From: Escherichia coli
Lineage (GTDB): Bacteria; Pseudomonadota; Gammaproteobacteria; Enterobacterales; Enterobacteriaceae
Direction: 5' to 3' (one strand)
Assembly (NCBI RefSeq): GCF_003334815.1
Contig: NZ_QOWO01000010.1
Length of the DNA stretch: 64,000 nucleotides
This document shows, in pieces, positions 19,354-33,838 of the stretch (the first letter of the stretch is position 1; each line of letters starts with the position of its first letter). Both the position numbers and the translations under genes were made by a program. Below the pieces are notes generated by a model, which was given only the letters and a program-made list of their open reading frames with translations, did no database searches and was not told where the DNA came from.

Positions 19354-20607
19354 GTGAGCCGTACTACAACTGTTGATGGCGCTCCGGCAAGCGACACTGA
19401 CAAGCAAAGCATTTCTCAGCCAAATCAATTTATTAAACGCGGTACGCCGCAATTTATGCGCGTCACCCTGGCGCTGTTCTCTGCCGGACTGGCAACATTT
19501 GCACTTCTCTATTGTGTGCAGCCTATCCTTCCGGTGCTTTCGCAGGAGTTTGGCTTAACCCCCGCGAACAGTAGTATTTCACTGTCCATTTCCACGGCGA
19601 TGTTGGCTATTGGTTTGCTGTTTACTGGCCCGCTATCCGATGCCATTGGTCGCAAACCAGTGATGGTCACGGCGCTACTGTTGGCCTCCATTTGTACGTT
19701 ACTTTCGACAATGATGACCAGCTGGCACGGCATTTTGATTATGCGCGCCTTGATTGGGCTTTCGTTAAGTGGCGTGGCAGCTGTTGGCATGACTTATCTT
19801 AGCGAGGAAATCCATCCCAGTTTCGTGGCCTTTTCAATGGGGTTGTATATCAGCGGCAACTCAATTGGCGGCATGAGCGGACGCTTAATTAGCGGTGTCT
19901 TCACGGACTTTTTCAACTGGCGAATTGCTCTGGCGGCAATCGGTTGTTTCGCGCTGGCCTCGGCGTTGATGTTCTGGAAAATCCTCCCTGAATCACGCCA
20001 TTTTCGCCCGACTTCGCTGCGCCCTAAGACGTTGTTTATCAACTTTCGTCTGCACTGGCGTGACCGGGGATTACCGTTATTGTTCGCAGAAGGCTTTTTG
20101 CTGATGGGGTCGTTCGTCACGCTGTTTAATTACATCGGCTATCGGTTGATGCTCTCCCCCTGGCATGTCAGTCAGGCCGTGGTTGGCTTATTATCGCTGG
20201 CTTATTTGACCGGTACATGGAGCTCACCCAAAGCCGGAACCATGACCACCCGCTATGGGCGTGGTCCAGTGATGTTGTTTTCGACGGGGGTTATGCTGTT
20301 TGGTTTACTGATGACCTTATTCAGCTCGCTGTGGCTGATCTTTGCCGGAATGTTACTCTTCTCAGCAGGATTCTTCGCAGCCCACTCAGTAGCCAGCAGC
20401 TGGATCGGCCCCCGCGCAAAACGCGCTAAAGGCCAGGCCTCCTCGCTGTATCTGTTCAGTTACTATCTGGGGTCGAGTATTGCCGGGACGCTGGGTGGTG
20501 TTTTCTGGCATAACTATGGCTGGAACGGCGTCGGCGCATTTATTGCTCTGATGCTGGTCATTGCTCTGCTGGTCGGGACGCGTTTGCATCGTCGTCTGCA
20601 CGCCTGA
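19354..20607 (+). CDS. ynfM: MFS transporter
   Basis: 417-aa ORF with a GTG start and a 12-TM-like profile. Divergently arranged with the LysR regulator ynfL. Confidence 0.85.
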   Translation: MSRTTTVDGAPASDTDKQSISQPNQFIKRGTPQFMRVTLALFSAGLATFALLYCVQPILPVLSQEFGLTPANSSISLSISTAMLAIGLLFTGPLSDAIGRKPVMVTALLLASICTLLSTMMTSWHGILIMRALIGLSLSGVAAVGMTYLSEEIHPSFVAFSMGLYISGNSIGGMSGRLISGVFTDFFNWRIALAAIGCFALASALMFWKILPESRHFRPTSLRPKTLFINFRLHWRDRGLPLLFAEGFLLMGSFVTLFNYIGYRLMLSPWHVSQAVVGLLSLAYLTGTWSSPKAGTMTTRYGRGPVMLFSTGVMLFGLLMTLFSSLWLIFAGMLLFSAGFFAAHSVASSWIGPRAKRAKGQASSLYLFSYYLGSSIAGTLGGVFWHNYGWNGVGAFIALMLVIALLVGTRLHRRLHA

Positions 20608-20913
20608 AAAATAAGTCCGGACTGCGGTAAATACCCGTCCGGACTTATTGCCAGCTCAAACCAACGTTAATAGCCATCCTAAAATAGACGAAGCGCCAGC
20701 CAATTCCCGCAGCGCGTCTAGCGTCATCAGGATTATAAGTACCCAAATAAACGGATTCATTTTGCTGTGTGTCATTTATTACTGATGCGCAGTTATTCTA
20801 CTGCTTTGTAAGTAGTAAAATAGTTAACCCGATCAAGACTACTATTATTGGTAGCTAAATTTCCCTTAAGTCACAATACGTTATTATCAACGCTGTAATT
20901 TATTCAGCGTTTG

Positions 20914-20927
20914 TACATATCGTTACA
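20914..20927 (+). promoter_or_regulatory. RstA-box match in the asr promoter region
   Basis: TACATATCGTTACA fits the RstA box TACATNTNGTTACA as recalled, about 105 bp upstream of the asr start. An adjacent Pho-box-like element CTGTAATTTATTCAGCG sits at 20893-20909. Confidence 0.5.
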
Positions 20928-21030
20928 CGCTGAAACCAACCACTCACGGAAGTCTGCCATTCCCAGGGATATAGTTATTTCAACGGCCCCGCAGTGGGGT
21001 TAAATGAAAAAACAAATTGAGGGTATGACA

Positions 21031-21339
21031 ATGAAAAAAGTATTAGCTCTGGTTGTTGCCGCTGCTATGGGTCTGTCTTCTGCCGCCTTTGCTGCAGAGA
21101 CTACGACCACACCTGCTCCGACTGCGACGACCACCAAAGCAGCGCCGGCGAAAACTACACATCATAAAAAACAGCATAAAGCAGCACCTGCCCAGAAAGC
21201 GCAGGCGGCTAAAAAGCATCATAAAAATACGAAAGCTGAACAGAAAGCCCCTGAACAAAAAGCGCAGGCAGCGAAGAAACACGCCAAGAAACACAGCCAT
21301 CAGCAACCGGCAAAACCTGCTGCACAACCCGCAGCGTAA
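21031..21339 (+). CDS. asr: Acid shock protein (periplasmic, Lys/Ala/His-rich)
   Basis: ORF 21004..21339 trimmed to the ATG at 21031 ([21 protein letters not shown], 102 aa). Signal peptide and internal KAQAAKKH repeats. Confidence 0.85.
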
Positions 21340-21431
21340 GTTTTCAACAGTAATGCTGGCGCGCCCCCTCGCGCCTGAAAATTACGGTGCTAAGCGGGTA
21401 ACGTTTAGCACCGCCTTTAGCGGAGGGTAGT

Positions 21432-21515
21432 ATGGTGGGCCGTTATCGCTTTGAGTTCATTCTGATCATCCTTATTTTATGCGCACTGATTGCCGCCCGT
21501 TTTTATCTTTCCTGA
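21432..21515 (+). CDS. ydgU: Small hydrophobic protein (27 aa)
   Basis: ATG at 21432 preceded by a GGAGGG RBS with a 5-nt spacer. Translates to MVGRYRFEFILIILILCALIAARFYLS, then TGA at 21513-21515. Too short for the ORF track; matches the position and sequence of E. coli ydgU as recalled. Confidence 0.5.
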   Translation: MVGRYRFEFILIILILCALIAARFYLS

Positions 21516-21614
21516 TTGTAGTTATCTGATTTTACTCCCACTTTCATCCCGTCCCGTCTATAGTATTTATGAGGGTTTGCTTTTAATAATCATAATTACC
21601 CACCAGAGTGTGAT

Positions 21615-22436
21615 ATGCGTACAACCATTGCTGTAGTGTTGGGTGCAATTAGTTTGACGTCTGCTTTTGTGTTTGCAGATAAACCAGACGTTGCCAGATC
21701 GGCAAACGATGAGGTCAGCACCCTGTTTTTTGGTCATGATGATCGTGTGCCAGTGAATGACACGACCCAATCACCGTGGGATGCGGTTGGGCAACTGGAA
21801 ACGGCCAGCGGCAATTTATGTACGGCGACGCTGATTGCACCCAATCTGGCATTAACGGCAGGACACTGTTTATTGACACCTCCAAAGGGTAAAGCCGATA
21901 AAGCAGTGGCGCTGCGTTTTGTGTCAAATAAAGGTCTTTGGCGCTATGAGATCCACGACATAGAAGGCCGCGTTGATCCGACACTGGGAAAGCGGTTAAA
22001 AGCAGATGGGGATGGTTGGATTGTACCTCCCGCAGCCGCGCCGTGGGACTTCGGATTGATTGTGCTACGTAATCCCCCTTCTGGCATTACGCCGTTGCCG
22101 TTATTTGAGGGAGATAAAGCCGCGCTTACCGCCGCATTAAAAGCGGCAGGTCGTAAAGTGACTCAGGCAGGCTACCCTGAAGATCATCTCGATACGTTGT
22201 ACAGTCATCAAAACTGTGAAGTGACTGGCTGGGCGCAAACGTCGGTGATGTCACATCAGTGCGATACCTTGCCGGGTGACAGCGGTTCGCCTCTGATGTT
22301 GCATACCGATGACGGCTGGCAATTAATTGGGGTGCAAAGTTCGGCTCCTGCCGCGAAAGATCGCTGGCGCGCCGATAACCGGGCCATTTCTGTTACCGGT
22401 TTTCGCGACAAGCTGGATCAACTGTCGCAAAAATAA
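21615..22436 (+). CDS. ydgD: Secreted trypsin-like serine peptidase
   Basis: 273-aa ORF with a signal peptide and the catalytic motifs TAGHC and GDSGSP of S1-family proteases. Confidence 0.8.
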
Positions 22437-23156: not shown

Positions 23157-23567
23157 TGTCCTTCTCCTGCAAGAGAATTATTTTAATTTTCGCTTAATTC
23201 AGCGAAACCAAAGTAAAGTGGTCAAGCCCCGCGCATAGCGCAAGCTTTGGCAGAAGAAAGGACTAAAGCGCGTTGCGCCAGTGCTGCTCACCTACGAGCA
23301 AGATAGTGGATGAGGTACGAAGATGGGTAAATGTAGAAAATAACGTCCTGAACAAATTGTCCATAATATTACAATTATCCGCAGTGTTGCTTCTCGTCAT
23401 CGCGGATGATAATTGTCCTCGGTAGTTGAACACGCCTGATTTGTATCATAGCTTAAGAATTAACTCAAAATATTTTCACTTCTTTACCTGAGCGGTTTGA
23501 TTTTCGTTATGATGACGGAGCGAAAAAGACATTATTATTAGCAAAGGAAGAAAAAACGGGGACAAGC

Positions 23568-31813: not shown

Positions 31814-32533
31814 ATGAACACTATCGTATTTGTGGAAGATGATGCGGAAGTCGGTTCACTGATTGCCGCGTACCTGGCAAAACATGATATGCAGGTTACC
31901 GTAGAGCCGCGCGGCGACCAGGCCGAAGAAACCATTTTGCGAGAAAATCCGGATTTGGTGTTACTCGACATCATGCTACCAGGCAAGGACGGCATGACCA
32001 TTTGTCGTGATTTACGCGCAAAGTGGTCTGGACCGATTGTTCTTCTAACCTCTCTCGATAGCGATATGAACCACATCCTGGCACTGGAAATGGGTGCCTG
32101 CGACTATATTCTCAAAACGACGCCCCCTGCTGTTTTGCTAGCGCGTTTACGTTTGCATTTGCGTCAGAATGAGCAAGCCACACTGACCAAAGGTCTTCAG
32201 GAAACGTCTCTGACTCCCTACAAAGCCCTGCATTTCGGCACGTTGACCATCGATCCCATCAACCGCGTAGTCACCCTGGCTAACACTGAAATCTCGCTCT
32301 CGACAGCTGATTTCGAATTATTGTGGGAATTAGCTACCCATGCCGGGCAAATCATGGACCGCGATGCATTGCTGAAAAATTTACGCGGCGTCAGTTATGA
32401 CGGACTGGATCGTAGCGTGGACGTGGCTATTTCGCGGTTAAGAAAAAAACTGCTCGATAACGCCGCAGAACCTTATCGCATTAAAACTGTGCGTAACAAA
32501 GGCTATCTTTTTGCGCCTCATGCATGGGAATAA
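31814..32533 (+). CDS. rstA: OmpR-family two-component response regulator
   Basis: ORF 31754..32533 trimmed to the ATG at 31814 (MNTIVFVEDD, 239 aa). Receiver domain followed by a winged-helix DNA-binding domain. Confidence 0.9.
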   Translation: MNTIVFVEDDAEVGSLIAAYLAKHDMQVTVEPRGDQAEETILRENPDLVLLDIMLPGKDGMTICRDLRAKWSGPIVLLTSLDSDMNHILALEMGACDYILKTTPPAVLLARLRLHLRQNEQATLTKGLQETSLTPYKALHFGTLTIDPINRVVTLANTEISLSTADFELLWELATHAGQIMDRDALLKNLRGVSYDGLDRSVDVAISRLRKKLLDNAAEPYRIKTVRNKGYLFAPHAWE

Positions 32534-32536
32534 GCG

Positions 32537-33838
32537 ATGAAAAAACTGTTTATCCAGTTTTACCTGTTATTGTTTGTCTGCTTCCTTGTGATGTCTCTGC
32601 TGGTTGGGCTGGTGTACAAATTTACCGCCGAACGCGCGGGCAAACAGTCGCTGGATGATTTGATGAACAGTTCGCTGTATCTGATGCGCAGCGAATTGCG
32701 TGAGATCCCCCCACACGACTGGGGTAAAACTCTGAAAGAGATGGATTTAAATCTCTCTTTCGATCTGCGTGTCGAGCCACTGAGTAAATACCATCTTGAT
32801 GATATTTCCATGCACCGACTGCGTGGCGGCGAAATTGTCGCCCTGGACGATCAGTACACGTTTTTGCAGCGTATCCCGCGCAGCCACTACGTGCTGGCAG
32901 TTGGTCCTGTTCCTTATCTTTATTATCTCCATCAGATGCGATTGCTGGATATCGCCCTGATCGCTTTTATTGCTATTTCCCTCGCCTTTCCGGTGTTTAT
33001 CTGGATGCGTCCGCACTGGCAGGATATGTTAAAACTGGAAGCAGCGGCGCAACGATTTGGCGATGGGCATCTCAATGAACGTATCCACTTTGATGAGGGT
33101 TCGAGCTTTGAACGACTTGGCGTCGCATTTAACCAGATGGCGGACAATATCAACGCCTTAATTGCCAGCAAAAAACAGCTTATTGACGGTATCGCTCACG
33201 AACTGCGAACACCGTTAGTGCGCCTGCGTTATCGACTGGAGATGAGCGATAACCTGAGCGCCGCCGAATCCCAGGCGTTGAATCGTGATATCAGTCAACT
33301 TGAAGCTTTAATTGAAGAGCTGCTGACTTATGCCCGACTCGATCGCCCACAAAACGAGCTTCATCTTAGCGAACCAGACCTGCCGTTGTGGCTGTCAACG
33401 CATCTGGCAGATATTCAGGCAGTAACGCCCGATAAAACGGTACGGATAAAAACGCTCGTGCAAGGCCATTATGCGGCGTTGGATATGCGCTTAATGGAGC
33501 GCGTGCTGGATAATTTGCTCAATAACGCCCTGCGGTACTGCCATTCAACGGTTGAAACAAGCCTGCTACTGTCGGGGAATAGAGCGACATTAATTGTTGA
33601 GGATGATGGCCCAGGGATTGCCCCAGAAAACCGCGAACATATCTTTGAACCTTTTGTTCGCCTCGATCCCAGCCGGGATCGCTCAACCGGCGGCTGCGGG
33701 CTGGGGCTGGCAATTGTCCACTCTATAGCACTGGCAATGGGCGGTACGGTTAATTGTGACACCAGCGAACTGGGTGGTGCCCGCTTCTCGTTTAGCTGGC
33801 CGTTATGGCATAACATCCCGCAATTTACCTCTGCCTGA
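32537..33838 (+). CDS. rstB: Two-component sensor histidine kinase
   Basis: 433-aa ORF with two transmembrane segments, a HAMP domain, an H-box (HELRTPL) and an ATPase domain. Starts 4 bp after rstA. Confidence 0.9.
   Translation: MKKLFIQFYLLLFVCFLVMSLLVGLVYKFTAERAGKQSLDDLMNSSLYLMRSELREIPPHDWGKTLKEMDLNLSFDLRVEPLSKYHLDDISMHRLRGGEIVALDDQYTFLQRIPRSHYVLAVGPVPYLYYLHQMRLLDIALIAFIAISLAFPVFIWMRPHWQDMLKLEAAAQRFGDGHLNERIHFDEGSSFERLGVAFNQMADNINALIASKKQLIDGIAHELRTPLVRLRYRLEMSDNLSAAESQALNRDISQLEALIEELLTYARLDRPQNELHLSEPDLPLWLSTHLADIQAVTPDKTVRIKTLVQGHYAALDMRLMERVLDNLLNNALRYCHSTVETSLLLSGNRATLIVEDDGPGIAPENREHIFEPFVRLDPSRDRSTGGCGLGLAIVHSIALAMGGTVNCDTSELGGARFSFSWPLWHNIPQFTSA

Follow-up and report, generated by a model that had tools for sequence, protein, structure and literature searches.

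The Escherichia coli frame between asr and ydgD is ydgU (samT), a conserved small membrane protein gene preceded by a terminator-like hairpin

Is the short reading frame that follows the acid-shock gene asr in Escherichia coli a gene, and how does it stand to the gene behind which it lies? The original prediction, made from the letters of the window (the whole 64-kb stretch of E. coli DNA analysed here), placed a 27-residue hydrophobic protein at positions 21432–21515. In the 3 kb around this site we counted 50 overlapping open reading frames (ORFs) of at least 20 amino acids, so the size of the frame alone was uninformative.

The 27-codon frame and its identity

We found that the frame opens with an ATG at 21432 and closes with a TGA at 21513–21515 on the forward strand, and that its 27 codons and stop (21432..21515) specify MVGRYRFEFILIILILCALIAARFYLS, a predicted single-pass inner-membrane peptide. 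The predicted frame and the GGAGGG upstream of it agreed exactly with the sequence. This Shine–Dalgarno (SD) sequence occupies 21422..21427 on the same strand and was invariant in an alignment of Escherichia, Citrobacter and Salmonella. The 5-nt spacer that had been claimed was obtained when counting from the GGAGG core, but from the full GGAGGG the distance is 4 nt (TAGT). The hydrophobic core of the peptide reached a maximal 17-residue Kyte–Doolittle mean of 2.73, as expected of the single-transmembrane-like product that had been proposed. The statement that the ORF track misses the gene was true of that track, but this was a length-threshold effect only: the frame is listed once ORFs of at least 20 amino acids are called, and ydgU is annotated by RefSeq in the E. 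coli records inspected. Upstream lies asr (21031..21339, forward strand; RefSeq annotation in identical or near-identical DNA), which encodes a periplasmic acid-shock protein of 102 amino acids and is the first gene of the operon. Its stop codon at 21337–21339 leaves a 92-nt intergenic gap before ydgU, and a further 99 nt separate ydgU from ydgD, which begins at 21615.

The combination of signals was much rarer than short frames as such. On both strands of the 64-kb window, GGAGG followed by an ATG 4–9 nt on occurred at six sites, and only the ydgU site opened an ORF of 15–50 amino acids, one that also has a transmembrane-like core. When the sequence was shuffled, 8 of 200 trials yielded any GGAGG–ATG ORF of this length with such a core.

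The ORF at 21432–21515 is E. coli ydgU (b4601), since renamed samT, a real, ordinary and already known gene. The original prediction had given this name from the position, and correctly so: K-12 MG1655 annotates ydgU at the same place, between asr and ydgD. Over 5001 nt around the locus the window and MG1655 differed at 2 positions. One falls between ynfL and ynfM (about 19303); the other is the G at 21492, which gives Ala21 in YdgU where MG1655 has an A and hence Thr21 (YP_001165320.1). Locus, 27-codon length, SD and neighbours were otherwise those of K-12 YdgU/SamT. The gene order, ynfM-asr-ydgU-ydgD-mdtI-mdtJ-mdtU-tqsA, is as in K-12, and the arrangement of asr followed by ydgU is identical in MG1655 and NCTC 86. 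The window peptide was identical to WP_000233090.1, a common E. coli allele whose name varies by RefSeq assembly between 'small membrane protein YdgU' and 'hypothetical protein' (one of each was confirmed). Two NCBIfam equivalog models covered residues 1–27 of 27, NF052476 (small_YdgU) with 70.3 bits where 24 are required, and NF011341 with 74.5 bits where 66 are required.

Of 5426 complete E. coli genomes, 5423 contained a 701-nt region around the ORF at an identity of at least 95%. In NZ_CP037910.1 an IS1 element lies inside this asr-ydgU-ydgD stretch, and in NZ_AP027599.1 the match is broken at query position 403, which is window position 21402; both interruptions may be natural disruptions of ydgU expression, the second of them falling inside the hairpin 2 described below. 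Another annotated small protein gene of the window, mdtU (b4777, 33 codons, 23263–23364, reverse strand), lies upstream of mdtJ in a stretch with two mismatches to MG1655, and it too would escape a length-thresholded ORF track.

Conservation of YdgU across Enterobacterales

For the comparison between species, Asr homologs were aligned and 80 asr loci were collected, a single genome standing for each species; all small ORFs on either strand of these ~5-kb loci were then scored against YdgU. In about 70 of the 80 loci the best-scoring small ORF was the one on the same strand just downstream of asr. Such an ORF was found in Escherichia, Citrobacter, Salmonella, Klebsiella, Raoultella, Leclercia and Siccibacter, and further in Pantoea, Erwinia, Serratia, Yersinia, Pectobacterium, Brenneria, Rahnella and others. 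The peptides share the motif M-x(1-3)-R-[RH]-Y-x-F-E-[FIL]-[IL]-L ... C-[AG] followed by a hydrophobic tail. The window peptide fits this family pattern, with a length of about 26–32 amino acids, a basic N-terminal RRYxFE and one hydrophobic helix carrying Cys-[Ala/Gly]. Among 71 distinct homologs the Glu was kept in all 71, the Phe in 70, the Tyr in 68 and the Cys in 66, with the qualification that the first eight alignment columns had served to locate homologs and are therefore conserved partly by construction. An unbiased ORF scan recovered the same ORFs as the motif-based search.

The substitutions were of the kind seen in coding sequence. Over 21 aligned codons of the 71 distinct sequences, the mean pN/pS was 0.37, and 0.29 for closer, less saturated pairs. 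Entropy by codon position was highest at the third (1.52), lower at the first (0.96) and lowest at the second (0.54), and stop codons interrupted the other two frames, one of them in 61 and the other in 53 sequences. Furthermore, an SD-like hexamer (at least 4 of 6 matches to AGGAGG, 3–11 nt before the start) was found at 65 of 70 loci. By these measures of substitution, the amino-acid sequence of YdgU is under purifying selection. The YdgU frame is kept across Enterobacterales, which was one of the checks proposed at the outset; a translation signal and a conserved frame, the two features whose absence was to speak against the original prediction, were both clearly present.

In several genomes the asr locus was present twice, and a ydgU-like ORF accompanied each copy. 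The genomes were those of Klebsiella pneumoniae (loci L020/L047), Raoultella (L025/L027 and L061/L067), Enterobacter sp. 10-1 (L024/L031), Yersinia (L008/L063 and L016/L075) and Serratia sp. AKBS12 (L049/L055), and asr and ydgU seem to have been copied together as a pair. The peptides of the second copies end differently, with ...CALFTLRLIFK, for instance, in Klebsiella and Raoultella; in Yersinia and Serratia they take a 32-residue form, MINRYLFELIFS.... Other copies were broken or divergent. In Candidatus Pantoea persica the codon for the conserved Glu has become a stop, and the neighbouring asr is truncated; the second copy of Y. similis contains an in-frame stop; that of Y. rohdei is a degenerate remnant; and Y. 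pestis has a divergent ORF, MIHYSWFELIFS.... At the asr locus of Edwardsiella anguillarum no ydgU homolog was found, and the locus of E. hoshinae, which stops at a contig edge, was not counted as an absence. Copies of ydgU with in-frame stops occur where asr has also decayed or been duplicated, and this is the pattern of decay expected of a gene.

The start site was unusual in the three Buttiauxella loci (L018, L019 and L022; about positions 2860–3040). There, the six codons before the RYRFE motif contain no ATG, GTG or TTG, and the sole in-frame ATG is found a few bases past the asr stop, which would give an ORF of 47–55 amino acids running through the terminator hairpin. Alternatively, a non-canonical start may be used in this genus.

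Hairpins between asr and ydgU

We found two hairpins on the forward strand in the 92 nt that separate the two genes. Hairpin 1 (21358..21375) has the form GGCGCG-CCCCCT-CGCGCC with a C-rich loop, and folds alone at -11.2 kcal/mol. Hairpin 2 (21385..21413) has a 12-bp stem, CGGTGCTAAGCG / CGTTTAGCACCG, followed by GCCTTTAGC, with a folding energy of -20.0 kcal/mol. Its position is equivalent to that of an intrinsic terminator between asr and ydgU in other genera. A stable hairpin (-12 to -25 kcal/mol) was found in most of 70 loci, ending about 16–22 nt before the ydgU start, with the SD directly after it. In Klebsiella, Raoultella, Leclercia, Yersinia and their relatives this element is a canonical intrinsic terminator with 6–7 T, whereas Escherichia, Citrobacter and Salmonella have only a shortened T-run, CCTTTAG or CCTTTCGG. 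A scan with a consensus terminator did not flag hairpin 2 of E. coli.

The hairpin 2 stem was well kept within the clade. In the alignment of Escherichia, Citrobacter and Salmonella, 99.1% of the cells of the stem were paired, compared with 27–44% in slid controls, and 4 of the 12 pairs changed on both sides and still paired. RNAalifold on 67 loci returned no consensus structure, since clade-specific hairpins are out of register in such an alignment. Given these clade-specific stems, we claim across clades only the shared position of the hairpin, and covariation only within Escherichia, Citrobacter and Salmonella. An Rfam search of 20600–21800 at E ≤ 1 gave no match.

We then considered the other end of the unit. 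The scan found no convincing terminator in the E. coli gap between ydgU and ydgD (21516–21614), and in 11 of 12 sampled genera the 200 nt after ydgU held no terminator-like site, the exception being one Klebsiella candidate. Thus ydgU is preceded, and not followed, by the one terminator-like element of the unit; the operon could end in a Rho-dependent manner, or transcription could run on into ydgD. With a hairpin before ydgU and no terminator after it in most sampled loci, the peptide is probably made from read-through transcripts. The simplest reading of this arrangement is that most transcripts would stop after asr and that ydgU would be translated from the fraction that reads through. We infer that the hairpin between asr and ydgU may act as a partial terminator that holds SamT far below Asr.

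In Escherichia the predicted structure extended over the start site itself. The minimum free energy (MFE) fold of 21337–21445 had -46.7 kcal/mol (z = -3.3 against shuffles). In the Escherichia MFE structure CCCUC pairs with GAGGG of the SD, and the bases preceding it pair with the G of the AUG and the next codon. The predicted probability that the SD is unpaired was 0.00–0.02 in Escherichia compared with about 0.3 in controls, and forcing the SD and AUG open was predicted to cost 11.4 kcal/mol. The hairpin 1 loop is CCCCCU in all four Escherichia loci, and its CCCCC run was found in 16 of 16 Escherichia, Citrobacter and Salmonella loci listed, with varying flanks. Complementarity between this loop and the SD was confined to Escherichia; in Citrobacter the A of the SD interrupts it, and Citrobacter and Salmonella keep the C5 loop without that pairing.

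General sequestration of the SD was considered and rejected. Over the 70 loci, mean accessibility was 0.34 for native sequences and 0.28 for controls with shuffled upstream sequence, a difference (Wilcoxon p = 0.064) in the direction opposite to sequestration, and occlusion was confined to Escherichia and a few scattered loci. Within Escherichia, the folding predictions suggest that occlusion of the SD and AUG may add a second layer that lowers ydgU translation. It is a tentative possibility, and one we would rather doubt than favour, that the leaky terminator abutting the SD in all genera, the C5-loop hairpin of Escherichia, Citrobacter and Salmonella and the burial of the Escherichia SD and AUG make up a conserved regulatory device, as opposed to a plain terminator, that would set or conditionally change the ratio of SamT to Asr. 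The authors who described SamT considered that asr and samT might be expressed differentially (PMC13425233); a terminator, read-through or a hairpin was not discussed for asr–samT in the main text of the ydgU/samT papers searched. What novelty is left to the present analysis resides in the conserved order of terminator and then SD, and in the predicted burial of the start site that is specific to Escherichia.

Expression, feedback on RstB and alternative roles

Upstream of asr lies a candidate site for RstA. The sequence TACATATCGTTACA at 20914..20927 on the forward strand exactly matched the RstA-box consensus TACATNTNGTTACA, and a canonical RstA box has been described at E. coli asr (PMC4117788). 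This was the single match in the 64-kb window even with 1 mismatch allowed, but 22 of 100 shuffles gave at least one, which makes the match weak evidence alone; the box is the probable activator site of the asr–ydgU promoter. A sigma-70 consensus scan of 20700–21800, in itself weak evidence, found no promoter, as would be expected if the asr promoter depends on an activator and ydgU has none of its own. The region just upstream of ydgU has been reported to have negligible promoter activity, with expression depending on PhoQP through the asr promoter (PMC11429745). The genes for the two-component system lie in the same window about 10–11 kb downstream of ydgU, both matched from MG1655 and on the forward strand: rstA (31814–32533) is identical, and rstB (32537..33838), which encodes the sensor kinase reported as the target of SamT, differs at some positions.

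Ribosome profiling and epitope tagging, proposed as checks in the original prediction, had both been published. The identification of ydgU is credited to Hemm et al. 2008 (PMC13425233). In the work of Schumacher et al. 2023, ydgU was one of the most induced ORFs at pH 4.4 and came third among genes with raised ribosome occupancy, with a log2 fold change of 9.22 in Ribo-seq and 12.39 in RNA, and was assigned to the asr transcription unit; Asr accounted for about 2% of all Ribo-seq reads at this pH (PMC10746267). Vellappan et al. showed that magnesium limitation induces ydgU in a PhoQ-dependent manner through the region upstream of asr (PMC11429745). Expression had been seen by earlier epitope tagging and membrane localisation by tagging with GFP, GFP–YdgU being found at the cell periphery, and neither deletion nor overexpression of ydgU changed growth under magnesium limitation (PMC11429745). 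Mathis de Fromont et al. (NAR 2026) renamed the gene samT and showed by northern blots that asr and samT RNAs are RstA-dependent at pH 5 (PMC13425233). In that work samT alone, in single copy and in trans, restored negative feedback on Pasr at pH 5; the feedback was abolished in rstA D52A/D52E and rstB mutants and persisted when a PhoP-independent promoter drove rstAB. Two-hybrid signals, obtained with overproduced fusions, were strong for SamT–RstB and weaker for PhoQ and EnvZ, and Asr and SamT acted independently of each other (PMC13425233). Inhibition of RstB by SamT is thus reported by one paper, from two-hybrid and genetic data in K-12, and the allele of the window is Ala21.

Taking the locus and these reports together, we consider it very probable that ydgU/samT is the second cistron of an acid- and low-magnesium-induced asr–ydgU operon and encodes a membrane peptide that feeds back on RstB. 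In this mechanism PhoQ–PhoP would induce the rstA operon, and phosphorylated RstA would activate the asr promoter. Transcripts that pass the hairpin or hairpins after asr would carry the strong SD and the ATG of ydgU, and the 27-residue product would enter the inner membrane as one helix with its N-terminal arginines in the cytoplasm. SamT would then bind RstB and limit phosphotransfer from RstB to RstA at acid pH, a negative feedback comparable to that of MgrB on PhoQ.

Other readings of the locus were weighed against this one. Small ORFs are common by chance, as the count of 50 around ydgU illustrates, and the region just upstream is a clearly structured RNA, so that the frame could in principle be fortuitous, lying in a non-coding asr 3′ UTR whose conserved element is an RNA, either a terminator or a 3′-UTR-derived sRNA. 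Such an RNA would not account for a pN/pS of 0.3–0.37, for third positions that vary most while the other frames are closed, for the conserved SD and start, or for a peptide motif that is kept from Escherichia to Yersinia and Pectobacterium while the nucleotides diverge, and Rfam held no match to it. Ribosome footprints (PMC10746267) and a tagged protein (PMC11429745) have also been reported. With coding-type conservation and published Ribo-seq and tagging in hand, we ruled this reading out, and give it next to no probability. Slightly less remote, yet still highly improbable, is a role mainly in cis, in which translation of ydgU would control ydgD expression or asr mRNA stability and the peptide would be irrelevant. 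Read-through into ydgD is conceivable, no intrinsic terminator having been found between the two genes; however, the gap to ydgD measures 99 nt, selection acts on the amino-acid sequence, and samT acts in trans from another locus (PMC13425233).

The remaining alternative accepts a real membrane peptide and gives it a main partner other than RstB, which might be a different kinase (PhoQ or EnvZ), a transporter, for instance the adjacent MdtJI, or the membrane, the effect on RstB being secondary or an artefact of overproduction. Many small membrane proteins modulate transporters, which counts in its favour. The weaker two-hybrid signals with PhoQ and EnvZ (PMC13425233) and the lack of a deletion or overexpression phenotype in low magnesium (PMC11429745) point the same way. 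We nevertheless regard it as unlikely, because single-copy samT in trans restores the Pasr feedback at pH 5, and because the effect needs the RstB–RstA phosphorelay and persists with a PhoP-independent rstAB promoter (PMC13425233). In addition, ydgU is tightly linked to asr, the main target of RstA, across genera and in duplicated copies. Feedback on RstB by a peptide encoded behind asr is therefore the reading that we prefer.

SamT under this preferred reading resembles MgrB in being a small single-pass peptide that is controlled by a two-component system and restrains the kinase of that system, binding in the case of SamT having been detected by two-hybrid; the SamT authors found no strong sequence similarity between the two (PMC13425233). 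The mgrB gene is absent from the 64-kb window. MgrB is longer than SamT and is monocistronic, whereas SamT is encoded second in its operon, after an abundant periplasmic protein, and follows a terminator-like hairpin. In this respect the locus recalls operons in which an internal partial terminator sets the ratio of promoter-proximal to promoter-distal products. The likeness is that a first gene expressed at a very high level is separated from a second gene of low stoichiometry by a stable, GC-rich hairpin with a T-run; the difference is that in Escherichia the U-tract is eroded and a structure predicted to occlude the SD and AUG is found instead, termination here being itself a prediction. 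A further parallel is ugtS–ugtL of Salmonella, where one operon under two-component control likewise encodes both a factor that activates this system and a small protein that inhibits it, but UgtS antagonises UgtL, both being PhoQ modulators, whereas Asr and SamT are independent (PMC13425233).

As a discovery the frame carries little weight, since b4601 is in the K-12 annotation, has a dedicated NCBI family model and had its function published in 2026. It does illustrate that a genuine 27-codon gene can be recovered from raw sequence by SD, ATG and hydrophobicity alone. What the analysis adds is the picture across genera, in which both the peptide and its placement right after a terminator-like hairpin extend from Escherichia to Yersinia and Pectobacterium. 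This placement suggests a way in which a kinase-inhibiting peptide may be kept at a much lower dose than Asr while both are expressed from the same promoter.
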